Shown here: piece after piece, positions 3,553-56,800 of the stretch
How the letters are laid out: the number at the start of each line of letters is the position of its first letter
Numbering within the stretch: the stretch's first letter is position 1
Sequence record: KM606994
DNA length: 64,000 bases
From: Escherichia phage RB3
Strand: one strand, 5' to 3'
Position numbers and translations under genes: made by a program
The notes under the pieces: model-generated
Told to the model about the DNA's origin: nothing
Databases searched by the model: none
The model's input: only the letters and a program-made list of their open reading frames with translations

Positions 3553-4190
3553 TGAATGAACCCCAATTACTAATTGAAACTTGGGGTCAACCTGGCGAAA
3601 TTATTGATGGCGTGCCAATGCTTGAATCTCATGATGGAAAAGACTTAGGTTTAAAACCGGGTTTATACATCGAAGGAATATTCATGCAAGCGGAAGTCGT
3701 CAATAGAAATAAACGTCTTTATCCAAAACGTATATTAGAAAAAGCGGTAAAAGACTATATTAATGAGCAAGTTTTAACTAAACAAGCTCTCGGAGAATTA
3801 AATCATCCTCCACGCGCTAATGTTGACCCGATGCAAGCCGCTATCATTATAGAAGATATGTGGTGGAAAGGAAATGACGTATACGGACGAGCTCGTGTTA
3901 TTGAAGGTGACCATGGTCCTGGAGATAAATTAGCAGCTAATATTCGTGCCGGATGGATTCCAGGAGTTTCTTCTCGTGGATTAGGTTCATTGACTGACAC
4001 AAATAAAGGTTATCGTATCGTAAACGAAGGATTCAAATTAACTGTAGGTGTTGATGCGGTATGGGGTCCAAGTGCTCCAGATGCATGGGTAACTCCTAAG
4101 GAAATTACCGAATCACAGACGGCGGAAGCCGATACAAGTGCCGATGACGCCTATATGGCTCTCGCAGAGGCCATGAAAAAAGCGTTATAA
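3552..4190 (+). CDS. 21: Prohead core protease gp21
   Basis: 212 aa, same length and position as T4 gp21; start overlaps gene 68 stop. Confidence 0.9.
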   Translation: MNEPQLLIETWGQPGEIIDGVPMLESHDGKDLGLKPGLYIEGIFMQAEVVNRNKRLYPKRILEKAVKDYINEQVLTKQALGELNHPPRANVDPMQAAIIIEDMWWKGNDVYGRARVIEGDHGPGDKLAANIRAGWIPGVSSRGLGSLTDTNKGYRIVNEGFKLTVGVDAVWGPSAPDAWVTPKEITESQTAEADTSADDAYMALAEAMKKAL

Positions 4191-7987: not shown

Positions 7988-8012
7988 GGGACCGAAAGGT
8001 CCCTTTTTATTT
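7988..8012. terminator. Bidirectional terminator between gene 24 and rnlB
   Basis: GGGACC-GAAA-GGTCCC followed by TTTTTATTT. Confidence 0.75.
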
Positions 8013-9015
8013 AGCTCACCAACTCAATCCAAGCTGGACGAAGTACATCTTGTACCATTTTAACTAATTCCTTTTTAATCAAAGAAGGATTATCTGCTTG
8101 AGTTAGAGTAATACCTTCACGAGAAGTTTCTTCCAAAATATCTTGAACAGTTAGCCCCATCACCTTTCCAAAATCTTTAGGACCAATTTCGCCAATTTTA
8201 GAAATAACGTTATTTACTCGGTTCAGTGTAACGTAACAAGCTAAAATTCCCACCAATTTGTTATCAGCTTCTGATAGTTCAACTTTAGCTTTAATAGGCT
8301 TATCAGACTTTTTCTTTTCACTAAATTTGGAATTCTTGCATTTAATCGCTACACGATTTCCATTACGAAGCCAAGAAGGATAACAAGGTTTCAATACATA
8401 TCCTTCAGCGGTAAATACTTCGCCTTTTGCTTCGGCATTCCAAACGCATTTATTTGCATCAACTAATCCAGCATGGTCTACTGTAAAATTATAATCTTGG
8501 ACGACAGAATCTAAATCATTTGGCAATTTAATAAGCTCTTCAAATTTACCGCGACCTAAAAGTGGAGCCATTTTAAATTTAAATGTATTGCAGAATGATT
8601 CCATCATATAATCATCGACATAAGTCACATCACCACTTTCTGTAGTAACAATAATGTCAAATACATAAAAATCTTTATCGCCATAATCAACATTCTTCTG
8701 AATGCCAGGTCCAGCGAATTCGCCAAAGACTTGATAAGATACAACTGCTGAAGTTTCCATAATATCTTGTACTGCTTTAATGGAATCAGCGTAATTCTTT
8801 AAAATAATTTCATACCCAAAGAAATCTTCAGCAGGAAGAATAGGACCAGTACGTTTAGCGCAAGTTACTTTATCACGCTCAATAATCAATGAGAAATTTG
8901 TGCCGTGAATTTTTTCACGAGCTACCCATTCGCCGCCAGTCAATCCCAGGCTATAAAGTTTTTCAATAAATTTAGAGTTGTAATGATTTTCAAGACTGCT
9001 ATACTTTTTAAACAT
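8011..9015 (-). CDS. rnlB: RNA ligase 2
   Basis: 334 aa; nucleotidyltransferase KxxG motif (EKIHGTN); T4 position after gene 24. Confidence 0.9.
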
Positions 9016-16630: not shown

Positions 16631-17805
16631 TGAGTATGTTGCAACGCCCCGGATATCCAAATCTCAGCGTTAAATTATTTGATAGCTACGACGCTTGGAG
16701 TAATAATAGATTTGTTGAATTAGCTGCTACTATTACCACATTAACTATGCGGGATTCTCTTTATGGACGAAATGAAGGAATGCTGCAGTTTTATGATTCT
16801 AAAAACATCCATACAAAAATGGATGGAAATGAAATAATTCAGATTTCTGTAGCTAATGCAAATGATATTAATAATGTTAAAACACGAATTTATGGATGTA
16901 AGCATTTTTCCGTGTCAGTAGATTCAAAAGGTGATAACATCATTGCTATTGAATTGGGAACTATTCATTCTATAGAAAATCTTAAATTTGGTAGACCATT
17001 TTTCCCTGATGCAGGTGAATCTATAAAAGAAATGCTTGGTGTCATTTATCAGGATCGCACATTATTAACTCCAGCAATAAATGCTATAAATGCTTATGTT
17101 CCTGATATTCCATGGACTAGCACATTTGAAAACTATTTGTCATATGTAAGAGAAGTTGCTCTAGCTGTAGGAAGCGACAAATTTGTATTTGTGTGGCAAG
17201 ACATCATGGGAGTTAACATGATGGACTATGATATGATGATAAATCAAGAACCATATCCAATGATTGTCGGTGAGCCATCTTTAATAGGTCAATTCATCCA
17301 AGAATTAAAATATCCATTAGCATATGATTTTGTTTGGTTGACTAAATCGAATCCTCACAAACGTGACCCAATGAAAAATGCTACTATCTATGCTCATTCA
17401 TTTTTAGATTCTTCATTGCCAATGATTACTACAGGAAAGGGCGAAAACTCTATTGTAGTGTCAAGGTCAGGTGCTTATTCTGAAATGACTTATAGGAATG
17501 GATATGAAGAAGCTATTCGTCTTCAAACTATGGCACAATATGACGGCTATGCTAAATGTTCTACTGTCGGTAATTTTAACTTGACTCCTGGCGTTAAAAT
17601 TATTTTTAATGATAGTAAAAACCAATTTAAAACAGAATTTTACGTTGATGAAGTTATCCATGAATTATCCAATAATAATTCAGTAACTCATCTATATATG
17701 TTCACTAATGCAACGAAACTGGAAACAATAGACCCAGTTAAGGTTAAAAATGAATTTAAATCTGATACTACCACTGAAGAAAGTAGTTCTTCCAATAAGC
17801 AATAA
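16630..17805 (+). CDS. 27: Baseplate hub protein gp27
   Basis: 391 aa; synteny. Confidence 0.9.
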
Positions 17806-20060: not shown

Positions 20061-21155
20061 ATGGCAATTGTTAAAGAAATAACTGCTGATTTAATTAAAA
20101 AGTCCGGTGAGAAAATTTCAGCCGGACAGAGCACTAAATCAGAAGTAGTAACTAAAACATACACTGCCCAGTTTCCAACTGGGCGTGCTAGTGGTAATGA
20201 CACTACAGGGGACTTCCAGGTAACAGATCTATATAAGAATGGATTATTATTTACTGCATACAATATGTCATCTAGGGATTCTGGAAGTCTTAGATCGATG
20301 AGATCTAACTACTCTTCTTCATCTTCGAGTATTTTAAGTACAGCCAGAAACACTATTAGTAGTACAGTATCAAAACTATCAAATGGATTAATATCAAATA
20401 ATAATTCAGGAACAATAAGTAAAGCTCCTGTCGCAAACATTCTTTTACCGAGATCTAAATCTGATGTTGATACATCATCACATAGATTTAATGATGTTCA
20501 AGAAAGCCTTATCAGTAGAGGCGGAGGTACTGCTACTGGTGTGCTAAGTAATATTGCTTCAACCGCAGTATTTGGGGCACTGGAAAGTATAACACAAGGT
20601 ATAATGGCTGATAATAATGAGCAGATTTATACGACAGCCAGAAGTATGTACGGTGGCGCTGAAAATAGAACTAAAGTGTTTACATGGGATTTGACTCCAC
20701 GTTCCACAGAAGATTTAATGGCTATTATTAATATCTATCAATATTTTAACTATTTTTCTTATGGTGAAACGGGTAAATCTCAATATGCTGCTGAAATAAA
20801 GGGATATTTAGATGATTGGTATCGTTCTACGTTAATTGAACCTTTATCTCCGGAAGACGCAGCTAAAAATAAAACACTATTTGAGAAAATGACATCGAGT
20901 TTAACTAACGTTCTAGTAGTTTCAAACCCGACAATTTGGATGGTGAAAAACTTTGGTGCAACATCTAAGTTTGATGGAAAAACTGAAATATTTGGTCCAT
21001 GCCAAATTCAAAATATCAGATTTGATAAAACACCTAATGGTAACTTTAACGGATTAGCTATTGCTCCAAACCTCCCTAGTACATTTACTCTCGAGATTAC
21101 TATGAGAGAAATTATCACGTTAAACCGTGCTTCTTTATATGCGGGGACTTTTTAA
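20061..21155 (+). CDS. 48: Baseplate tail-tube junction protein gp48
   Basis: 364 aa; synteny. Confidence 0.9.
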   Translation: MAIVKEITADLIKKSGEKISAGQSTKSEVVTKTYTAQFPTGRASGNDTTGDFQVTDLYKNGLLFTAYNMSSRDSGSLRSMRSNYSSSSSSILSTARNTISSTVSKLSNGLISNNNSGTISKAPVANILLPRSKSDVDTSSHRFNDVQESLISRGGGTATGVLSNIASTAVFGALESITQGIMADNNEQIYTTARSMYGGAENRTKVFTWDLTPRSTEDLMAIINIYQYFNYFSYGETGKSQYAAEIKGYLDDWYRSTLIEPLSPEDAAKNKTLFEKMTSSLTNVLVVSNPTIWMVKNFGATSKFDGKTEIFGPCQIQNIRFDKTPNGNFNGLAIAPNLPSTFTLEITMREIITLNRASLYAGTF

Positions 21156-22120: not shown

Positions 22121-22124
22121 CAAT

Positions 22125-22153
22125 GGGGACCGAAAGGTCCCCATATTTTTATT
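22125..22153. terminator. Terminator between gene 54 and alt.-3 (convergent)
   Basis: GGGGACC-GAAA-GGTCCCC followed by ATATTTTTATTT. Confidence 0.75.
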
Positions 22154-22439
22154 TACGGAATGAAATGAAAGCAGAAACTGAAGCAACTAAACTGTCTTCA
22201 ATATAAACTTCAATTTTTACCGGAGCTTCTGACTCAAATTTACCTGTTACTACACTCTGAAAAATACTTTCAGACTGTTCTGGCTTTGAAAAATTTTCAG
22301 AAGGAAAAATTCCAAACTTTTTATCTGTTCCAAAAATTTTAATAAATTCATCGTAAACTGCTTCATTAAAAGCATTATCAGCAGGAATAACGCCTTCAAC
22401 TACAAGTTCTTGACCTAAAAAGCGCAAAGAAGATTTCAT
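22149..22439 (-). CDS. Hypothetical protein (alt.-3 position)
   Basis: 96-aa ORF; early-type promoter cassette upstream. Confidence 0.5.
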   Translation of the reverse strand: MKSSLRFLGQELVVEGVIPADNAFNEAVYDEFIKIFGTDKKFGIFPSENFSKPEQSESIFQSVVTGKFESEAPVKIEVYIEDSLVASVSAFISFRK

Positions 22440-22446
22440 TTTGTGT

Positions 22447-22500
22447 TCCTCATGTTATGTCAGTAAGTCTACTATAACACAACACGAGGGACTTGTAAAC
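22447..22500 (-). repeat. 54-bp early promoter/leader cassette, copy A
   Basis: Hand alignment: 52 of 54 nt identical to 37922-37975. Confidence 0.85.
22471..22500 (-). promoter_or_regulatory. Early-type promoter (GTTTAC -35, TATAGT -10) upstream of alt.-3
   Basis: GTTTAC-18 nt-TATAGT on minus strand; part of a 54-bp repeat. Confidence 0.6.
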
Positions 22501-24557
22501 TACATTTTGAACTTTTTAGACATTCCGTTGATGTTAACCAAAGAAGCTAATATTTGAGAAACTTCGTTTTCCTCTTCTTTTGATTCTTCTACAAGGAATT
22601 GATTAAATCCAGCCATTGGACGAACTTCACCAGTTTCCATTAAATGGTCTCCATCATATACTGATTCTTCTAATTGTTCAGAAGGAGGAACGATTGTACC
22701 TTCGATTAGATACTTGTTATAAGCAGTTTCTTTCATAAAGTACGTACTTACTTTATTAATCTTCAGTAAAATTCCGCGCGGTAGAATAACTTCAGCTTCT
22801 GATGGAAATCCTGATAAATGACCTGGAACGATAACTTTGATTCGCTCAGCTCCTTTAATTACCATACCCACGCTAGTTTCAGCATCTTCATTAGCATATG
22901 TAGAATGACTACCCATATGCATCAAATCTTCTGCATCAACGGAACCTTCTCCTTCACCAGAAAATACTGCGCCGGAATCATCTAGAGCCATATAGTTTTT
23001 ACCATGCTCACCGAAGATATTTGGTTTAAGCGATGTGGATACGAAGTTCTTGAAATAGAACATTTTGTTTTCAATGTTATGACGCAAAGTTTTAAAGGTA
23101 ACTTCTTGTCCACGATAAAGCGTAGTTCCTGGAGGAAGAACTGAACCTTTAGCGAATGCAGAATCAAGCGTCTCAATATGTTTAATAGCTCGTTCCATAT
23201 ATTCTTCACGGGTAGAATCTGGTTTACCCAAAAGGAACGAGTTCATTTCAACATATGAATCTGCACAATAATCTTCAATTACATCAGATTCAGCTTGAGT
23301 TAATCCTTTTGGAGTTACTTCGGTGCTTGCGTATTCATATGCCTGGGCAGCAGATTCATTAATCAATTTATAAATGCCATTCATGACAAATTGAATAATA
23401 GCTGTCTTTTCATCTGGCGTAGCTTTAGAACCTTTAACTAAATCATTAATAATTTTCTTAATAACATCAAAGCTATTAGAAATATTAATGTCAGCAAGAT
23501 CGCTTAAAATTTTATCAGTTTTATAATCAAAGAATTCTTTATTCTTTAAATATTCTTGAGAACCTTGATACGATATATCGCTCTGCAACTTGATAGATGG
23601 ATCACGTAAACGTGCATGGGCTAATGCAATATGATTTCGGAAACTTTCTAGTTCATAATCGTTAGATTTAAAACGAGAAGCACTTCTCATACCACCGATA
23701 GCTCCTTTGCCGAAGTTTGAACCAATCTGAATAACGCCAGAGTTCATTGGTCCTTCTGCTTTATATACCGGAACTTTAGATTCAAACTCTTGATATTTCT
23801 TGGCAGCGAAGCTATCACCCTGAAGTGAAGCATCGACAGTAGAATATTGAGCTTGTGCTGCTAATCGACGACTAATTTTAGTTTTTTGAATAACAGCTTG
23901 ATCCGTGCGCTTATCATTTTCTAAAGCAATAGAAGCAGCAACAGCGACAGCTTTAGGAACAGCATTACCTGTTTTAACATCTACATAAACATCACCGACC
24001 TTTGATTCAACTTTTGTGAATAACTCAGTTGAAATAGGAGGTACACCTGGAATGTCTTCTAAATTGGCATTTTTACGGTAAACCATAATATATGCATACT
24101 TTTTATCATAGTCCCAGATTTCCTTTAAAAGAACATATCGACCTGCTCCTTTAGTACGTACTAAACGGTCAGCAATAACTTGCATTTGACGAGCAGCGCC
24201 ATTTGTTTTACTTTTTAGTACGCGGAATAGGCATGCGTCAATTTTATACTGTTTCATTGTTTGAAGAGCAGTATCAAAAACAGCATTAATGACGCCAATT
24301 GGATTTCCACCCAAGTTTCTAAGCTTAACCAGCGATAATTTCTCGTTGACACCTATCATTACGATATGCATCATTTTATCGCCTGGCTTAACGTTTTTAT
24401 TCGTATCACCACCAGAGGTGTATGTACAAAATCTAAATCCAGGAAGCACGCTTTCTTCGCCGGCTTGAATAGCAAAAATTTGTGGTATTTTATGCTTAGG
24501 ATTTAAGTTAACAACCGGCGCCGAAGCGCCGTCAAATAATTCTGTAATAAGTTCCAT
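22500..24557 (-). CDS. Alt-like ADP-ribosyltransferase paralogue (downstream copy)
   Basis: 685 aa; N-terminus MELITELFD... close to the upstream copy; R-S-E ART motifs (LYRGQ, FVSTSL, EAEVILPRG); start 3 nt after the upstream copy's stop. Confidence 0.8.
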   Translation of the reverse strand: MELITELFDGASAPVVNLNPKHKIPQIFAIQAGEESVLPGFRFCTYTSGGDTNKNVKPGDKMMHIVMIGVNEKLSLVKLRNLGGNPIGVINAVFDTALQTMKQYKIDACLFRVLKSKTNGAARQMQVIADRLVRTKGAGRYVLLKEIWDYDKKYAYIMVYRKNANLEDIPGVPPISTELFTKVESKVGDVYVDVKTGNAVPKAVAVAASIALENDKRTDQAVIQKTKISRRLAAQAQYSTVDASLQGDSFAAKKYQEFESKVPVYKAEGPMNSGVIQIGSNFGKGAIGGMRSASRFKSNDYELESFRNHIALAHARLRDPSIKLQSDISYQGSQEYLKNKEFFDYKTDKILSDLADINISNSFDVIKKIINDLVKGSKATPDEKTAIIQFVMNGIYKLINESAAQAYEYASTEVTPKGLTQAESDVIEDYCADSYVEMNSFLLGKPDSTREEYMERAIKHIETLDSAFAKGSVLPPGTTLYRGQEVTFKTLRHNIENKMFYFKNFVSTSLKPNIFGEHGKNYMALDDSGAVFSGEGEGSVDAEDLMHMGSHSTYANEDAETSVGMVIKGAERIKVIVPGHLSGFPSEAEVILPRGILLKINKVSTYFMKETAYNKYLIEGTIVPPSEQLEESVYDGDHLMETGEVRPMAGFNQFLVEESKEEENEVSQILASLVNINGMSKKFKM

Positions 24558-24560
24558 GAT

Positions 24561-26654
24561 TTATCCTTGAACGAACTTGTAAGGCATGTTTGTAATATCT
24601 ATGCAAGACGCAATAATTCCAAGAGATGATTCTGCTTTCTGTTTAACGTTTGATGAAACAAATGATGCAAAGTCAACTCTGTCTTCTATTTCAATATCAC
24701 CTGTCATTGCAACTACTTCACCGGTTTCCATTAAATGGTCTCCGTCATAGATTACCGATTCGGTGAGTTCTTCGGTGGTCATAACTTCAGCTTGAATGAG
24801 TTTTGTATTATTAGATGTTGTTCCGTCATTATTAGAAGCATCAGTTATTTTATTAACTTTGACCATCAATCCACGCGGTAGAATAACTTCAGCTTCTGTT
24901 GCTATTCCGAGACTTCCTGGATATACAACATTAACTTTATGAGCTCCATCAATTGCCCATCCTATTTGAACTTTAACGTATTCAGGATTTTCTTTATACG
25001 CTCTTATTTCGTTTGGATTAATAGTTATTCCTTCTTCATTTTTATCAACTGTTAATTCATTGCGAGCTTCTGGTTCTAAAAGACCAATACCAGCATGTGT
25101 AATTCCAAAACGTCCAAAAATGATAGGAGTTAAAGAAGTAGATACAAAATTTCTGAAATAGAACACTTTATTTTTAACTAGTGCTTCGTATATAGGAGCA
25201 GTCATACTTTGAGCACGATAAACTGTAATGCCTTCTGGTATACGGTCACCATTTTCAAAAGCTGAATCTAAATTATTTATCGCAGATTCAATTTCTTTTT
25301 CACTCATTACATCATATCGTTCTGGATTGTAGCGGCCTAAAAGAAGATTATTGATGTCAGTATATCCTGATCCACAATACTCTCTAATACCGCGCTTTTG
25401 CGATGGAGTATATTTAGAACCATCACGGGCAATAGTAATATCAATCATTGGACCTGCACCAATTCCAGAAAAACTATAAATCATTCGTTTGAGGAATTTA
25501 GTTTTTGCTGAGTTCCAAGAATTTTTAGTTATTTCTTCCCAGACTTCATCTGGCTGCCCTTTACGAGTTTTATTATGTTTATCAAGCCAATTATCTTTAT
25601 ATTCTTCAAAGAATTGATTAACAGCTGCTGCGTATTTCTCTAAACATTTTATTGAAGTAGTTGGTTCATTTTTAATCGCATTAAGAATTACATCTTTAAT
25701 TTTTTCAGAAACTTCATTAACCTCACTTTTTGAAAAGAATTTATAGTCATAGTGAAGTTCATCTGCGGTTCCTTCGGCAATGATTTTTGCTGCCTTAGTT
25801 TTAGAAGCTAATGAATTAATTCCAAGCTTCATTTCTTCTGCTTCGGGAATTAAAGGAGCAGTAGCAGGTTTATTGAAATTAGCTGCGGTAGATTCATACT
25901 TCTGGAATAATTCACTTTCAAATCTAGAAGACTCTAACGATTGACTTTGTGCAATTGCTCTACGTGAAATTTTAACTTTAACGATTACAGCTTGGTCAGA
26001 ACGTTTATCATTTTCTTGCGCAATAGATGCTGCAATTGCCTCATTTTTAGTTACTTGGGCTCCAGTATCTTTATTGATATAAACATCACCGACCTTCGAT
26101 TCAACTTTAGTAAAGAGCTCAGTACTAATTTCCGGAACTCCCGGAATGTCTTCTAGTGATACATTTTTGCGATGTATAAGAATATATGCATACTTTTTAT
26201 CGTAATCCCAGAGTTCCTTAAGAAGGACGTATCTGCCACCTGAACGACTGCGGATGAGTCTATCAGCAATAAGTTGAATTTGTCGAGCTTGACCGGCGGT
26301 TTTAGACTTAAGAATACGAAGCATGCAGGCATCAATTTTATACTGACGCATTGTTTGCATTGCAACAGTAAAAACCGAATTGATATAATTAATTGGGCTT
26401 GGACCAAGACCTTTCAATTTAGCAATTGAACCTTTAGCGGTTAATGTAAAAGGAACAATATGCATCATTTTATCGCCCATTTTTAAATCGCGATTAGTAT
26501 CACCTCCAGATGTATAGGTACATAAACGAAAGCCTGGTTGTTCAATTGCATCATCAACATGAACTGAAAAAATTTGCGGTATTTTCTTCTTTGGATTTAA
26601 GTTTGTAATCGGAAGAGTAGTATCTTCGTCAAATAATTCTGTAATAAGTTCCAT
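24561..26654 (-). CDS. alt: Alt ADP-ribosyltransferase (head-packaged, injected)
   Basis: 697 aa from second Met; R-S-E motifs (VYRAQ, FVSTSL, EAEVILPRG); late promoter upstream; adjacent to alt.1 and gene 30. Confidence 0.85.
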   Translation of the reverse strand: MELITELFDEDTTLPITNLNPKKKIPQIFSVHVDDAIEQPGFRLCTYTSGGDTNRDLKMGDKMMHIVPFTLTAKGSIAKLKGLGPSPINYINSVFTVAMQTMRQYKIDACMLRILKSKTAGQARQIQLIADRLIRSRSGGRYVLLKELWDYDKKYAYILIHRKNVSLEDIPGVPEISTELFTKVESKVGDVYINKDTGAQVTKNEAIAASIAQENDKRSDQAVIVKVKISRRAIAQSQSLESSRFESELFQKYESTAANFNKPATAPLIPEAEEMKLGINSLASKTKAAKIIAEGTADELHYDYKFFSKSEVNEVSEKIKDVILNAIKNEPTTSIKCLEKYAAAVNQFFEEYKDNWLDKHNKTRKGQPDEVWEEITKNSWNSAKTKFLKRMIYSFSGIGAGPMIDITIARDGSKYTPSQKRGIREYCGSGYTDINNLLLGRYNPERYDVMSEKEIESAINNLDSAFENGDRIPEGITVYRAQSMTAPIYEALVKNKVFYFRNFVSTSLTPIIFGRFGITHAGIGLLEPEARNELTVDKNEEGITINPNEIRAYKENPEYVKVQIGWAIDGAHKVNVVYPGSLGIATEAEVILPRGLMVKVNKITDASNNDGTTSNNTKLIQAEVMTTEELTESVIYDGDHLMETGEVVAMTGDIEIEDRVDFASFVSSNVKQKAESSLGIIASCIDITNMPYKFVQG

Positions 26655-26677
26655 CATAGCCTCTCTAGTGTTTATTC

Positions 26678-34967: not shown

Positions 34968-34997
34968 ATAATATCACAACTCTACCGTAAAGTAAAC
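34968..34997 (-). promoter_or_regulatory. Early promoter upstream of cd.3-position ORF
   Basis: GTTTAC-18 nt-TATTAT on minus strand. Confidence 0.6.
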
Positions 34998-37070: not shown

Positions 37071-37420
37071 TTAGAAAGGTCCTGGATGTCTTCTGCGAAC
37101 TTGTTGAAGGAGTTGTTGATTTGTTTTTCAACCAATCCTGGCTTATGAGCCACCACATCCGCCTTCTTTGCATCTTTGCGCAGTTTTTCATTTTCACGCT
37201 CAATAGCAGCAATTGCCTCACGATTTTTATTATTCATCGCATCAATATAATTATACTGAATTCGCAAATTATTTAATGCTAAAGCGTTTTCATTGGCCGT
37301 TTTTGTAATTTCAGTAACTGATGTTTCTAATCTTTCTACCTTATTTTTTAAAATAATAGATGTTCCGCCAAATGCTATTACAAGTAATAGCAATCCAGCT
37401 GTAAAATTACTTACATGCAT
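37067..37420 (-). CDS. Inner-membrane spanin (i-spanin; T4 pseT.3-type)
   Basis: 117 aa; N-terminal TM helix (AGLLLLVIAFGGTSIIL) then charged coiled-coil. Confidence 0.65.
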   Translation of the reverse strand: MHVSNFTAGLLLLVIAFGGTSIILKNKVERLETSVTEITKTANENALALNNLRIQYNYIDAMNNKNREAIAAIERENEKLRKDAKKADVVAHKPGLVEKQINNSFNKFAEDIQDLSK

Positions 37421-37914
37421 AAAGTTTTAATAACCTCTATAATATCGTCTTGAGAAAGACCGTTAATTAAAATATGATGTTCAGCTGGAGATTTAGAAAT
37501 TTTAAAGCATGCCTCAACATCTTCTGCCATATCCGATGCACTACGATTTGGATTACTAATACCAAGGCGGTGTTTTCCCGTCAAAGGATTAACGATGATA
37601 TAGCATTTGCAGTTATTGATATGAACATTGGGTTGAGTCTGATTAATGAACACTTCACAATCATACTTAGCGAGTTGATTTTCTAAAAAGACTTTCATCT
37701 CTTCAACCGCATCAGGAAGCATATCACGGGCTTGCTCAAGACGACGATTTCGATATTCTTTAATGGTCGTTTTCCGCTTGACTTGCTTAGCTAAATCTTT
37801 CTTAAGATCAGTGATATATCCAACTCGACGATTTCCTTTGAATACAGAAATCCCATCTGTAGTATCACCGTATGCTTCAACGACCATTTCAGTAGTAATA
37901 AGTTGTAAATCCAT
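37411..37914 (-). CDS. alc: Alc, inhibitor of host transcription
   Basis: 167 aa from second Met; position between pseT.3 and rnlA. Confidence 0.85.
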   Translation of the reverse strand: MDLQLITTEMVVEAYGDTTDGISVFKGNRRVGYITDLKKDLAKQVKRKTTIKEYRNRRLEQARDMLPDAVEEMKVFLENQLAKYDCEVFINQTQPNVHINNCKCYIIVNPLTGKHRLGISNPNRSASDMAEDVEACFKISKSPAEHHILINGLSQDDIIEVIKTLCM

Positions 37915-37921
37915 CATAAAG

Positions 37922-37975
37922 TCCTCATGTTATGTCAGTAAGACTACTGTAACACAACACGAGGGACTTGTAAAC
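37922..37975 (-). repeat. 54-bp early promoter/leader cassette, copy B
   Basis: Hand alignment: 52 of 54 nt identical to 22447-22500; the two mismatches lie in the -10 and start region. Confidence 0.85.
37946..37975 (-). promoter_or_regulatory. Early-type promoter (GTTTAC -35, TACAGT -10) upstream of alc
   Basis: GTTTAC-18 nt-TACAGT on minus strand; part of a 54-bp repeat. Confidence 0.55.
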
Positions 37976-40096: not shown

Positions 40097-41187
40097 CGTT
40101 ATGTTCGATTGAGCTCGCTAATTCTCAACCCGTTCTCTTATGAACTGCTACATATTACTATGCAGACCAGACTATATCACAATCCCAGAGGGATTCTCCC
40201 CATTTCGAGTCGCTTGACCCTACGTCCGAAGACTAGTCGTTGAACCTTGCTTTGCAATTGTCGCCGTGCCATCGTTTATATGTTGATGGTGATAAATCTT
40301 TCTTATCACAATATGGACAATTCAATTGAATTCTATTTGGATTTAATTTACATCTGTCATTATGTTTTAGATAAAATCCAGGACCTTTACCAATGTGACC
40401 GCAGAAATCACATGTGATTTCTTTTTGTGCAGGATGGGTCCCGTTCTTAACCATTTCTAATGTTTTTGCTGATGTTCTTTTCTTATGGTCTTCTGACAAG
40501 AAATGATGTGAACCGTCATTTACCCGTTTTGATTGAGTTTCTGACTGCATTTTACCACCGCAAAATACATGAGTACCTTCTTTTATAGCTGCAATATTGC
40601 GTTCTTTAACTTTTGCAATATGCTCAGCTTGTTGAAAATTATGTATACCTAATGCAACTCTATTTAAATTAGATTTACGCTGTATTTCACCGTCTAAAAG
40701 ATGAAATGTACCATTTTCTATCTTAGATTTAATAGAGGCAATATTTTTAGCTCGTACTTCAGGGATATTAAAAATCTGGATTTCTCTAGATTTTGCGGCT
40801 TTAGAAGCTAATTCAGAAATTTCTTCAGGAGAATATTTCATTCTAAGCTTTATAGCATGACAAGCCTGGTAATCTTTTTGAGCTAAATGTATATCATAAT
40901 GTTCCTGTATAGAAAGGCACATCAAATTATCTAAATCATTATTTTCACGGTTACCGTCTTTATGATGGATTTCGTCTGTTCTTCCATCAGAATCTTTAGG
41001 TATAGGTCCGTTAGCATCTATCCAAATTTTTCTATAGTTCAATTGTGCATCCTCTTAAAAGTATAATCATATTTATATTATACTAATTAAAGGTGCAAGC
41101 AAAACCTTGGCTGCTAGTTTTCCTATAAAGGACTTTCCAGCAATTAAAGGAGTTTTCGATAAACGTTACCGTTTAAAGGCGCATTTT
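40097..41187 (-). mobile_element. Group I self-splicing intron in nrdB, about 1.09 kb, carrying I-TevIII
   Basis: Interrupts nrdB between FYVSFA and CTFNFHK; 3' core shares GTAGGGTCAAGYGACTCGAAA and GATATAGTCTG with the td intron; boundaries inferred, +/- a few nt. Confidence 0.8.
40233..41042 (-). CDS. Intron-encoded HNH homing endonuclease I-TevIII, full length
   Basis: 269 aa; HNH motif (EIHHKDGNRENNDLDNLMCLSIQEHYDIH); inside nrdB intron. Confidence 0.85.
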   Translation of the reverse strand: MNYRKIWIDANGPIPKDSDGRTDEIHHKDGNRENNDLDNLMCLSIQEHYDIHLAQKDYQACHAIKLRMKYSPEEISELASKAAKSREIQIFNIPEVRAKNIASIKSKIENGTFHLLDGEIQRKSNLNRVALGIHNFQQAEHIAKVKERNIAAIKEGTHVFCGGKMQSETQSKRVNDGSHHFLSEDHKKRTSAKTLEMVKNGTHPAQKEITCDFCGHIGKGPGFYLKHNDRCKLNPNRIQLNCPYCDKKDLSPSTYKRWHGDNCKARFND

Positions 41188-53831: not shown

Positions 53832-56800
53832 ATGGCCGAGATTAAAAGAAAGTTCAGAGCAGAAGATGGTCTGGACGCAGGTGGCGATAAAATAATCAAC
53901 GTAGCTTTAGCTGATCGTACCGTAGGAACTGACGGTGTTAACGTTGATTACTTAATTCAAGAAAACACAGTTCAGCAATATGATCCAACTCGTGGATATT
54001 TAAAAGATTTTGTAATCATTTATAATAATCGTTTTTGGGCAGCAACGGATAATATTCCAAAACCTGCTGGAAATTTTAATAGAATTCGTTGGAAAGCATT
54101 ACGTACTGATGCCGTATATACAACCGTATCATCTGGACCATATCAATTAAAATCCGGAGAAGCAATTTCAGTAGATACATCAGTTGGCAATGACATTGAG
54201 TTTACTTTACCACCTTCTCCGCTTGATGGAGAAACCGTAATAATTCAAGATATCGGTGGAAAACCTGGCATAAATCAGGTTAAAATAAATTCTTCAAATC
54301 AGAGTATTGTCAATTTTAGAGGTGAACAGGTACGTTCAGTTTTAATGACTCATCCAAAGTCACAGATGGTATTCATTTTTAATAATCGTTTGTGGCAAAT
54401 GTATATTGCTGATTATAGCAGAGAAGCTGCGATTGTTACTCCATCGACTGCATATCAAGCACAATCTAATGATTTTATCGTACGTAGATTTACTTCTGCC
54501 GCACCGATTAATGTTAAACTTCCAAGATTTGCCAATCATGGAGATATCATTAATTTCGTTGATTTAGATAAATTAAATCCACTTTATCATACAATTGTTA
54601 CGACATATGATGAAACAACGTCAGTACAAGAAGTTGGAACTCATTCCATTGAAGGTCGTACATCGATTGACGGTTTCTTGATGTTTGATGATAATGAGAA
54701 ATTGTGGAGATTGTTTGATGGGGATAGTAAAGCACGTTTACGCATTATAACAACTAATTCTAATATTCGTCCAAATGAAGAAGTCATGGTATTTGGCGCG
54801 AATAATGGAACAACCCAAACAATTGAACTTCAGCTTCCGACTGATATTTCTGTTGGTGATACTGTCAAAATTTCCATGAATTACATGAGAAAAGGACAAA
54901 CGGTTAAAATCAAAGCTGCAGGTGAAGATAAAATTGCTTCTTCAGTTCAATTGCTGCAATTCCCAAAACGCTCAGAATATCCACCTGAAGCTGAGTGGGT
55001 TACAGTTCAAGAATTAGTTTTTAACGGTGAAACTAATTATGTTCCAGTTTTGGAGCTTGCTTATATTGAAGATTCTGATGGAAAATATTGGGTTGTACAG
55101 CAAAACGTTCCAACTGTAGAAAGAGTAGATTCTTTAAATGATTCTACTAGAGCAAGATTAGGGGTAATTGCTTTAGCTACACAAGCTCAAGCTAATGCTG
55201 ATTTAGAAAATTCTCCACAAAAAGAATTGGCAATTACTCCAGAAACGTTAGCTAATCGTACTGCTACAGAAACTCGTAGAGGTATTGCAAGAATAGCAAC
55301 TACTGCTCAAGTTAACCAGGATACTACATTCTCTTTTGCTGATGATATTATCATCACTCCTAAAAAGCTGAATGAAAGAACAGCTACTGAAACTCGCAGA
55401 GGTGTTGCTGAAATTGCTACACAGCAAGAAACTAATACAGGAACCGATGATACTACAATCATCACTCCTAAAAAGCTTCAAGCTCGACAAGGTTCTGAAT
55501 CATTATCTGGTATTGTAACTTTTGTATCTACTGCAGGTGCTACTCCAGCTTCTAGCCGTGAATTAAATGGTACGAATGTTTATAATAAAAACACTAATAA
55601 TTTAGTTGTTTCACCTAAAGCTTTGGATCAGTATAAAGCTACTCCAACACAGCAAGGTGCAGTAATTTTAGCAGTTGAAAGTGAAGTAATTGCTGGACAA
55701 AGTCAGGAAGGATGGGCAAATGCGGTTGTAACACCAGAAACGTTACATAAAAAGACATCAACTGATGGAAGAATTGGTTTAATTGAAATTGCTACGCAAA
55801 GTGAAGTTAACACAGGAACTGATTATACTCGTGCAGTCACTCCTAAAACTTTAAATGACCGTAGAGCAACTGAAAGTTTAAGTGGTATAGCTGAAATTGC
55901 TACGCAAGTTGAATTCGACGCAGGCGTCGACGATACTCGTATCTCTACACCATTAAAAATTAAAACCAGATTTAATAGTACTGATCGTACTTCTGTTGTT
56001 GCTCTATCTGGATTAGTTGAATCAGGAACTCTCTGGGACCATTATACCCTCAATATTCTTGAAGCAAATGAGACACAACGTGGTACACTTCGTGTAGCTA
56101 CACAAGTTGAAGCTGCTGCAGGAACATTAGATAATGTTTTAATAACTCCTAAAAAGCTTTTAGGTACTAAATCTACTGAAGCGCAAGAAGGTGTTATTAA
56201 AGTTGCAACTCAGTCTGAAACTGTGACTGGAACATCAGCAAATACTGCTGTATCTCCAAAAAATTTAAAATGGATCGTGCAGAGCGAACCTACTTGGGCA
56301 GCAACTACTGCAGTAAGAGGCTTTGTTAAAACTTCATCTGGTTCAATTACATTCGTTGGTAATGATACGGTAGGTTCAACACAGCCATTAGAATCATATG
56401 AGAAAAATAGCTATGCAGTATCACCATATGAATTAAACCGTGTATTAGCAAATTATCTGCCGTTAAAAGCAAAAGCTGTAGATAGTAATTTATTGGATGG
56501 TCTAGATTCATCTCAGTTCATTCGTAGGGATATTGCGCAGACGGTTAATGGTTCACTAACCTTAACCCAACAAACGAATCTGAGTGCCCCTCTTGTATCA
56601 TCTAGTACTGCTACGTTTGGTGGTTCAGTTACGGCAAATAGTGTACTAACTATTTCTAATACTGGAACAGAAACTCATCTGATTTTTGAGAAAGGACCTC
56701 AAACTGGAACTAACCAAGCACAGACGGTGACTATTAGAGTGTGGGGTAATCAATTTAGTGGGGAATCAGATACAACACGTTCTACTGTATTTGAAGTTGG

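Follow-up and report, generated by a model that had tools for sequence, protein, structure and literature searches.

A duplicated early-promoter cassette upstream of alc and alt.-3 in phage RB3 is predicted to form a Shine-Dalgarno-pairing hairpin

Results

Two copies of one early-promoter block upstream of alt.-3 and alc

We analyzed 64,000 nucleotides of Escherichia phage RB3 (sequence record KM606994; this whole stretch is called the window), in which a 54-bp block, referred to as the cassette, occurs twice, once upstream of alt.-3 and once upstream of alc. The window was 100% identical to phages RB5, RB6, RB7, RB9, and RB10 (Tequatrovirus RB3), a window position being the KM606995 position minus 95992, and its early genes were located on the minus strand. 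Copy 1 (22447..22500, minus strand) occupied the gap between alt.-2 (stop codon TAG, 22502-22500) and alt.-3 (22149..22439, minus strand; DUF5498, 96 aa). Its left edge, the G of GTTTAC, doubled as the third base of the alt.-2 stop codon, and its right edge, the final A of GAGGA, was located 7 nt before the alt.-3 ATG (22439). Copy 2 (37922..37975, minus strand) occupied the gap between rnlA (gene 63; stop codon TAA, 37981-37979) and its first downstream gene alc (37411..37914, minus strand; Pfam ALC), which encodes a terminator of host transcription. This copy had the same edges, starting 3 nt past the rnlA stop codon and ending 4-7 nt before the alc start codon (ATG 37914 or 37917). The cassettes made up 54 of the 60-64 intergenic nt, and so nearly the entire gap at each locus. 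Alt.-3 (DUF5498) and Alc (ALC) fall into different Pfam families and gave no BLASTP alignment at E <= 100, which ruled out a segmental gene duplication. Since the downstream proteins are unrelated, only the regulatory block was duplicated. An apparent 'E-x-VVE' motif shared near the N-termini of the two proteins was attributed to chance.

Both copies contained the elements of a T4 early promoter. The -35 hexamer TTTACA (22494..22499 in copy 1 and 37969..37974 in copy 2, minus strand) followed the G that T4 early promoters typically have there (GTTTAC). It was separated by a 17-nt spacer from an extended -10, which read TGT then TATAGT in copy 1 (22471..22479, minus strand) and TGT then TACAGT in copy 2 (37946..37954, minus strand). 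The hexamer matches were 10/12 and 9/12 respectively, and both spacers ended in TGn. From the spacing, transcription was predicted to start at an A 7 nt past the -10 (22464 in copy 1 and 37939 in copy 2, minus strand; cassette position 37). The Shine-Dalgarno (SD) sequence GAGGA was located at 22447..22451 for alt.-3 and at 37922..37926 for alc, both on the minus strand. An earlier note on this DNA, made from the letters alone, had assigned the two copies to these same genes and had read each as a T4 early-type promoter. The promoter type was retained, with the best hexamers redefined as TTTACA, 17 nt, and TATAGT or TACAGT, and with the TG of an extended -10 added. Neither the MotA box TGCTT nor the late promoter motif TATAAATA was present in either cassette, and no published middle promoter was found at T4 123.0 or 136.3 kb, the cassette positions. 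In T4 time-course omics, alt.-3 and alc were both early RNA and early protein, and the upstream genes alt, alt.-1, alt.-2, and rnlA fell into classes other than this pattern (PMC9697503 supplement).

Read on the minus strand, 22500..22447 was GTTTACAAGTCCCTCGTGTTGTGTTATAGTAGACTTACTGACATAACATGAGGA, and it was identical to 37975..37922 at 52 of 54 positions on the same strand, exactly as the earlier note had reported. The copies differed at cassette position 27 (T in copy 1, C in copy 2, inside the -10) and at position 33 (A in copy 1, T in copy 2). Beyond the cassette the identity dropped sharply to background, with 21/60 matches on either side. A search of the window allowing 3 mismatches returned exactly two sites, which were the two copies, and none in 100 dinucleotide shuffles. 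There were eight early-promoter-like sites in the window, and the remaining 27 pairs among them shared 16-34 of 54 positions. We then compared, over the same 54-nt span, all 35 GTTTAC-N17-19-TAnnnT sites on the early-gene strand of the RB5 genome minus 19 kb of late genes (149 kb). All of these, the two copies and 33 other sites, had the GTTTAC / GTG.TA...T architecture. Their pairwise identity had a median of 26/54 and a 99th percentile of 44, and the alc/alt.-3 pair ranked first of 595 pairs with 52. The next-best pairs reached 49/54 (50013 with 166073, and 24457 with 66938), and the 30-nt promoters at 2447 and 47039 were identical. The alc/alt.-3 pair thus stands at the far end of a real tail, in which T4-type early promoters form sub-families sharing spacers and leaders. 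Such sub-families are also found among promoter-early-stem-loop (PeSL) repeats (Arbiol et al., PMC2839356; Comeau et al., PMC4122927).

T4 early promoters all share GTTTAC, the GTG...TA...T region, and GAGG-type ribosome-binding sites, so some likeness is expected from promoter consensus or chance only. As a full explanation this is virtually untenable, given the distance of the pair from the genome-wide median, the empty shuffles, and the identical spacer and leader. The earlier note had argued that the identity exceeds what promoter consensus explains, and it did so through the spacer, -10, leader, and SD. The genome-wide search for further copies that the note had suggested thus yielded two copies only in the window and, in RB5, other sub-families at up to 49/54. 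Two further groups were seen among the RB5 sites. A trio of near-identical early promoters (69285, 69651, and 69982) was located at internal-protein genes, and the -10 plus leader GGTACTATACAACTATCAACTAC was common to eight early-promoter sites.

The SD-to-ATG region held one more repeated feature. The ATG within CATGAGGA (minus strand, window 22437-22454 and 37914-37928) opened a 5-codon mini-ORF (MRNTK* and MRTL*), whose TGA stop overlapped the genuine start codon (ATGA) and which had no SD ahead of it. Three other genera had the same arrangement at alt.-3, as did the promoter at window position 34996. The mini-ORF is probably a by-product of conserved SD-to-ATG spacing.

The cassette is predicted to fold into a hairpin on the sense strand

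An inverted-repeat census around the -10 of all 35 RB5 promoters first pointed to a hairpin, and RNA folding, which the earlier note had proposed for the leader, revealed it as the main feature of the whole cassette. The copy 1 hairpin (22448..22489, minus strand) consisted of a 5' arm at 22489-22470 (spacer and -10), a loop at 22469-22466, and a 3' arm at 22465-22448 (5' UTR and GAGG). The copy 2 hairpin (37919..37969, minus strand) consisted of a 5' arm at 37969-37945, a loop at 37944-37941, and a 3' arm at 37940-37919. In cassette numbering, the 5' arm ran from position 7 or 12 to 31, the loop from 32 to 35, and the 3' arm from 36 to 53 or 57. The alc copy folded with 22 bp and two bulges at -29.0 kcal/mol (z -4.25; 0 of 200 shuffles were as stable), and the alt.-3 copy with 18 bp at -23.3 kcal/mol (z -3.17). 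The alc stem continued for 3 bp beyond the duplicated block, into the alc-specific CTT. The -10 (positions 25-30) was located in the 5' arm beside the loop, and the predicted start in the 3' arm. In both copies, and in both the minimum-energy and the centroid folds, GAGG was predicted to pair with CCTC of the spacer (CC(C)TC at alc), as it would in read-through RNA. The antisense strand folded more weakly (z -2.5 and -1.6), and the stem contained three G.U pairs, which together argue for an RNA-level structure on the sense strand. In phage ACG-C40, one extra G made GAGGGACTT the perfect complement of AAGTCCCTC, giving a 9-bp helix without the bulge and a fold of -35.9 kcal/mol (z -6.3). The first reading of this DNA had thus overlooked that the cassette is, by prediction, an 18-22 bp sense-strand hairpin whose spacer CCCTC pairs with the SD.

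RNA beginning at A37 behaved differently. It folded at -2.4 and -4.2 kcal/mol (z +1.8 and +1.0), if anything more loosely than its shuffles, and the 5' UTR predicted for the promoter-initiated mRNA was exactly the 3' arm. The earlier note had offered a shared regulatory RNA element as one of its two explanations. The folding of the whole cassette agrees with this, whereas the mature leader does not: it is about 18 nt long, its folding ruled out any structure, and it gave no meaningful Rfam match. As modeled, the RNA element is the whole cassette and is present only in read-through transcripts. A PeSL-style stem-loop upstream of the -35 was ruled out as well, with z near 0 for the 80 nt upstream of each copy.

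Folding was common among the RB5 early promoters. Fifteen of the 35 cassettes folded strongly (z < -2), with the spacer pairing with the leader and the -10 in or next to the loop (for example 50013, 60200, 166073, 8159, 13362, and 127450, the last being window 31458). In 12 of the 35, the SD was predicted to pair with bases that lie ahead of the predicted start. Of the 35 cassettes, 8 had a perfect inverted repeat of 7 nt or more, compared to 1.6% of mismatched controls.

The same hairpin could serve another purpose. The cassette would then be a plain PeSL-type promoter duplicate, with a stem-loop that either shields alc and alt.-3 from upstream transcription as a terminator or attenuator, the role proposed by Arbiol et al., or serves as a 3' stability or processing hairpin of the upstream mRNA, and with incidental SD pairing. 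The reduction of lacZ expression by one PeSL stem-loop was similar to that by the rrnB T1 terminator (PMC2839356), about half of the strongly folding RB5 hairpins exclude the SD, and the Tegunavirus alc hairpin stops short of it. Set against this, no U-tract was found past the stem, where alc continues UAUGAUGG and alt.-3 AACACAAAAUG, and a terminator scan found none at either site and none between either cassette and its upstream gene. Moreover, the 3' arm at alc ended on the SD in five genera despite differing arms, and it was exactly the 5' UTR of the predicted mRNA. We regard the terminator or processing role as unlikely, though far from negligible. A bidirectional terminator-like hairpin was located elsewhere, at the junction of alt.-3 and gene 54 (22123..22144), where it closes the one-gene alt.-3 transcription unit. 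Its sequence, GGGACCGAAAGGTCCC (repeat family D19), was found at two sites, window 22123-22144 and 7988-8013.

Variation and exchange between the two loci in Tequatrovirus

Exactly two copies, at the same two loci, were found in about 500 Tequatrovirus records including T4. A metagenome scan with a 17-mer of the cassette gave 36 matches, most of them by chance in unrelated DNA and only about 12 T4-like. Both copies were tabulated from 14 genomes, which gave 18 distinct sequences. Across these variants, 97.8% of the pair cells had standard pairing, and 8 of 9 in-stem transitions kept the pairing. Seven pairs varied on one side yet stayed paired, for example T27.G40 (to C-G or U-A) and G16.U49 (to A-U), and the commonest variants, A32 and A33, were at loop positions.

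Copies within one genome differed by 0-6 nt (mean 2.07), orthologues by 2.12 nt at alc and 2.57 nt at alt.-3, and copies at different loci of different genomes by 2.59 nt. No fixed differences between the loci were found in the 14 genomes. Five derived alleles (16A, 27C, 29A, 32A, and 33A) were present at both loci (hypergeometric P 3e-5, rising to 7e-3 when modeled conservatively). In targeted searches, alc of G28, PP01, and KMB40 proved to have the A29+A32 haplotype typical of alt.-3, and alt.-3 of ACG-C40, KIT06, PTE-Eco15, and PSGBLB0006 the C27 typical of alc. A29+A32 was at both loci in G28 and PP01, and C27 at both in ACG-C40. The orthologous diversity of the cassette was 0.036 at alc and 0.049 at alt.-3, compared to 0.019-0.045 in flanking coding DNA. 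Because the diversity of the cassette was not below that of the flanking coding sequence, constraint alone does not account for the likeness of the copies. These patterns suggest occasional non-crossover gene conversion between the loci as the simplest explanation. The 15.5 kb between the copies carries essential genes and includes genes 30 and 31; a crossover would delete this stretch, so only conversions could survive. The 54 bp of the cassette are close to the homology threshold for efficient T4 recombination, which is said to be about 50 bp (a figure attributed to Singer et al. 1982).

Phage G28 contained a third copy, because 351 bp spanning the rnlA 3' end, cassette, and alc 5' end are duplicated in tandem (positions 20176-20580 of the region examined). 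This duplication leaves a truncated alc fragment and is either real or an assembly artefact. Its junction was in coding sequence, which ruled out a cassette-mediated rearrangement.

The cassette in other genera

At alc, the spacer was predicted to pair with the SD region in Tequatro-, Dhaka-, Gelderland-, Jiaoda-, and Kanagawavirus (z -3.1 to -5.6), the hairpins of the latter four having z values of -3.1 to -5.0. In those genera the 5' arm began directly after GTTTACA and the 3' arm ended on the SD. The arm pairs were CTCCTCAT/ATGAGGAG in Dhakavirus, TCTCCGTTT/AAACGGAGA in Gelderlandvirus, TCCTCATCAG/CTGATGAGGA in Jiaodavirus, and CCCATTTTGTT/AACAAAATGGG in Kanagawavirus. Since alignment left the arms out of register, cross-genus pairs were tabulated by fixed spacer position. 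At positions L8-L16, pair types changed on both sides between genera, showing co-variation.

The alt.-3 locus differed in this respect. In Dhaka-, Mosig-, and Gelderlandvirus, alt.-3 had early promoters without the hairpin (z -1.3, -0.3, and -1.1), and the hairpin at alt.-3 was found only in Tequatrovirus. Because of this restriction, and because the alc stem extends 3 bp past the block, the cassette probably passed from alc to alt.-3 in the Tequatrovirus lineage. Sequence-based arguments on the direction, among them a 'type A / type B spacer' scheme, were dropped. Cross-genus identity (62-79%) overlapped the 55-75% background of unrelated early promoters, and best-match ranking among the 35 RB5 promoters was ambiguous.

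Further arrangements were seen in individual genera. In Mosigvirus moskry, the alc and alt.-3 promoters (1545-1606 and 3877-3935 of the regions examined) had 79% global identity and the same AACAC..GGATG spacer, and neither had a hairpin. This may point to a separate replacement in the reverse direction, from alt.-3 to alc, at an identity barely above the 55-75% background. In Mosigvirus JS09, the region upstream of ndd.1 (2484-2543 of the region examined) contained the -10-to-ATG part of the alt.-3 copy including ACACAAAATG, with 37/38 matches and a 3-nt gap. This element, preceded by another -35 and spacer, was located in the hyperplastic ndd region; T4 and RB5 have no promoter before ndd.1. 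The arrangement suggests chimeric cassettes from exchange within promoters. In Gaprivervirus VR25 (17252-17401 of the region examined), an extra ORF resembling the Alc N-terminus was directly upstream of alc, which then lacked its own promoter. The annotated alt.-3 start of VR25 was apparently 33 nt too far upstream, inside the promoter.

The comparison across genera bears on two other explanations. According to the first, a trans-acting factor (a phage or host protein or RNA) recognizes the spacer or leader, and alc and alt.-3 form a small co-regulated regulon. The pair is the most similar of the 595 RB5 promoter pairs, both genes are early, and the spacer is unusually GC-rich for this genome. 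On the other hand, orthologous copies of the cassette varied at least as much as flanking coding DNA, and at neither locus was the sequence conserved in other genera, only the pairing. The mature leader of 18 nt is unstructured and unmatched in Rfam, there was no RegB GGAG motif or MotA box in the cassette, and no listed middle promoter lies there. A dedicated factor is thus improbable. The second explanation, which the earlier note had offered in the form of mobile promoter cassettes, is an autonomously mobile element that drives modular gene shuffling here by site-specific recombination or mini-circles. PeSL mini-circles have been detected in RB49 and phi1 in the literature, and the JS09 ndd.1 element, in a hyperplastic region where T4 has no promoter, would suit it. 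Against it are the two copies only per genome, the conserved order of the genes flanking both copies in every genus examined, and the absence of terminal repeats, target duplications, and an associated recombinase. The block edges were motifs of all early promoters (GTTTAC and GAGGA), as for short-patch homologous exchange, and a crossover between the copies would delete 15.5 kb with genes 30 and 31. Autonomous mobility is therefore highly improbable. From the earlier proposal, the PeSL architecture and the apparent exchange of sequence between the loci were borne out, but mobility and shuffling were not, and 'copied and occasionally converted' suits the evidence better than 'mobile'.

Neighboring genes

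T4 escapes the CmdTAC defence via C-terminal extensions of Alt.-3, and deletion of alt.-3 is tolerated (PMC11618068). The gene of copy 1 is therefore a non-essential counter-defence accessory gene. The alt.-3 copy adjoined the variable alt.-2/alt.-1 region. In RB5, alt and alt.-2 were full-length tandem paralogues (window 22500-26660; repeat families D1, D4, D5, D7, and D11; spacing about 2.1 kb). In T4-type genomes (T4, ACG-C40, and two IMG/VR contigs), most of alt.-2 was lost, the deletion ending 19 nt upstream of the cassette. Elsewhere in the window, four diverged copies of a 52-nt unit (..ATCACTCCTAAAAAGCT..ACTGAA; family D2) were irregularly spaced at 55340-56180, presumably encoding a repeated peptide motif in a tail-fibre gene. 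The nrdB intron of RB5 contained a full-length I-TevIII homing endonuclease ORF (window 40233-41042, 810 nt), which is truncated to 294 nt in T4.

Discussion

We favor, with a moderate degree of confidence, the reading that the cassette is a PeSL-type composite of a promoter and an SD-masking hairpin, with alc as donor and with occasional conversion between the loci. Two levels of function would follow from this reading. At the DNA level, the cassette would be a sigma-70-dependent T4 early promoter, whose -35 is GTTTACA and whose -10 is TATAGT or TACAGT, the 17-nt spacer between them ending in TGn. In RNA, transcripts entering from rnlA or from alt/alt.-2 would carry the whole cassette and form the 18-22 bp hairpin. 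In such read-through RNA, CCCUC would pair with GAGG and block translation of alc or alt.-3. RNA from the cassette's own promoter would start at A37 without the 5' arm, leaving the ribosome-binding site open for translation. With read-through transcripts masked and own transcripts open, synthesis of Alc and Alt.-3 would be limited to the minutes of early-promoter firing. In evolution, the design would be ancestral at alc, and the alc version would have been copied onto the alt.-3 gap in the Tequatrovirus lineage. Common descent, complementarity of the arms, and occasional gene conversion would have kept the copies alike.

Several observations weigh against this reading. About 7 of the 15 strongly folding RB5 cassettes enclosed only the -10 and not the SD, and in the work of Arbiol et al. 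one PeSL stem-loop showed terminator activity (PMC2839356). These stem-loops may in general serve another role. Mosigvirus (moskry) had no hairpin at alc, and in Tegunavirus the alc hairpin was strong but enclosed only the -10, stopping before the SD. Masking is therefore dispensable. Within Tequatrovirus, three variants (A29, T16, and A12) disrupted the stem, and the common allele A29 broke a G-C pair, though it also created the consensus TATAAT. Compensatory changes among the 18 Tequatrovirus variants were one-sided only, and since no pair changed on both sides, the shuffle control said nothing either way. The case for conversion is affected as well. Three of the five shared alleles improve the stem or the -10, so they could have arisen in parallel at both loci, and the within-genome permutation P of 0.014 is inflated, as G28, PP01, and ACG-C40 were picked after targeted searches. 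The donor direction rests on structure and not on sequence. Finally, a literature search that did not cover Miller 2003 or the early-promoter catalogues located no mapped transcription start or translation measurement for the two sites, and found no genome-wide start-site or cappable-seq data for T4.

A broader possibility is that the cassette represents a general, unrecognised design of T4-like phages. An early promoter placed in an SD-masking hairpin would form an 'early-only' translational gate, and such self-complementary cassettes would spread between loci and be kept homogeneous by short-patch gene conversion, the alc/alt.-3 pair being the youngest and clearest case. We put this forward tentatively, as somewhat less probable than its converse. 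If the masking reading of the cassette is right, it would explain how some proteins, here Alc and Alt.-3, are limited to the first minutes of infection despite read-through from upstream middle and late units, and the PeSL stem-loops would gain a concrete second function. The two 54-bp copies, between which crossovers are lethal, would offer a natural system in which gene conversion over short homology by the T4 recombination machinery could be measured. For annotation, the result means that promoter spacer and 5' UTR are not independent sequences in these phages.

Comparison with known systems

The comparison with PeSLs that the earlier note had proposed showed the same promoter, stem-loop, SD/ATG arrangement, and repetition. 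The cassette reads TTTACA-N17-TATAGT compared to the PST/T4 consensus TTTACW-N17-TAYWAT (Arbiol 2010, PMC2839356; Comeau 2014, PMC4122927). PeSLs are defined by a stem-loop mostly between the -35 and -10 or overlapping the -10, with an SD and ATG at the 3' end, and they extend from stop codon to ATG (PMC2839356). Likewise, the stem-loop of the cassette overlaps the -10, an SD and ATG are at its 3' end (GAGGA about 8-10 nt before the ATG), and it is repeated within the genome in copies that seem to recombine. Unlike PeSLs, the cassette has only two copies, 15.5 kb apart around essential genes and not flanking ORFans, and no insertion, deletion, or gene replacement is tied to this pair. It also lacks a poly-G/poly-C stem and a U-tract. 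Its A/T-rich upstream part is coding sequence outside the duplicated block; the 30 nt upstream of each copy are 70% A+T, compared to 43-87% at the other 33 RB5 sites. The stem-loop is read here as masking the SD, as the folds predict, rather than as a terminator.

In T4 e, soc, 49, and I-TevI, a hairpin hides the ribosome-binding site and a promoter is located inside its 5' arm (Uzan and Miller 2010, PMC3014915). The cassette resembles these genes in that its SD is in a predicted helix in upstream-started RNA, with the promoter in the DNA of the 5' strand and own transcripts lacking that strand. Their promoter is a late one (TATAAATA, gp55-dependent) and translation is delayed, whereas the promoter of the cassette is early and sigma-70-type and its translation is predicted to be early only. 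Moreover, alc and alt.-3 are not among the cases named in PMC3014915, and masking by the cassette is a prediction. As modeled, the cassette works like this family with the opposite temporal logic, so it is not classed as a member; the early-only gate, if it exists, would be the mirror image of their late-only gate.

Among T4 promoters, the cassette shares with the early class (Hinton 2010, PMC2988021) the GTTTAC -35, the 17-nt spacer, the TGn extended -10, and the early downstream genes. It differs in having no duplicated UP element, an imperfect -10 (TATAGT or TACAGT), and identity through non-consensus positions, and it differs from the middle class in lacking the MotA box TGCTT centred at -30. 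The cassette also resembles short dispersed repeats that evolve in concert through gene conversion, as well as the shuffling bounded by regulatory sequences that Repoila et al. (1994, cited in PMC4122927) noted for the internal-protein locus of T4, in the polymorphisms shared by the loci, the lack of fixed differences, and the same derived haplotype at both loci of single genomes. The conversion, judged from 14 genomes, would have a tract of at most 54 bp. Together, these comparisons place the cassette among the repeated regulatory cassettes known from T4-type phages, as a clear, unusually clean but fairly ordinary case, for which an extra masking function, predicted from the folds, is plausible.

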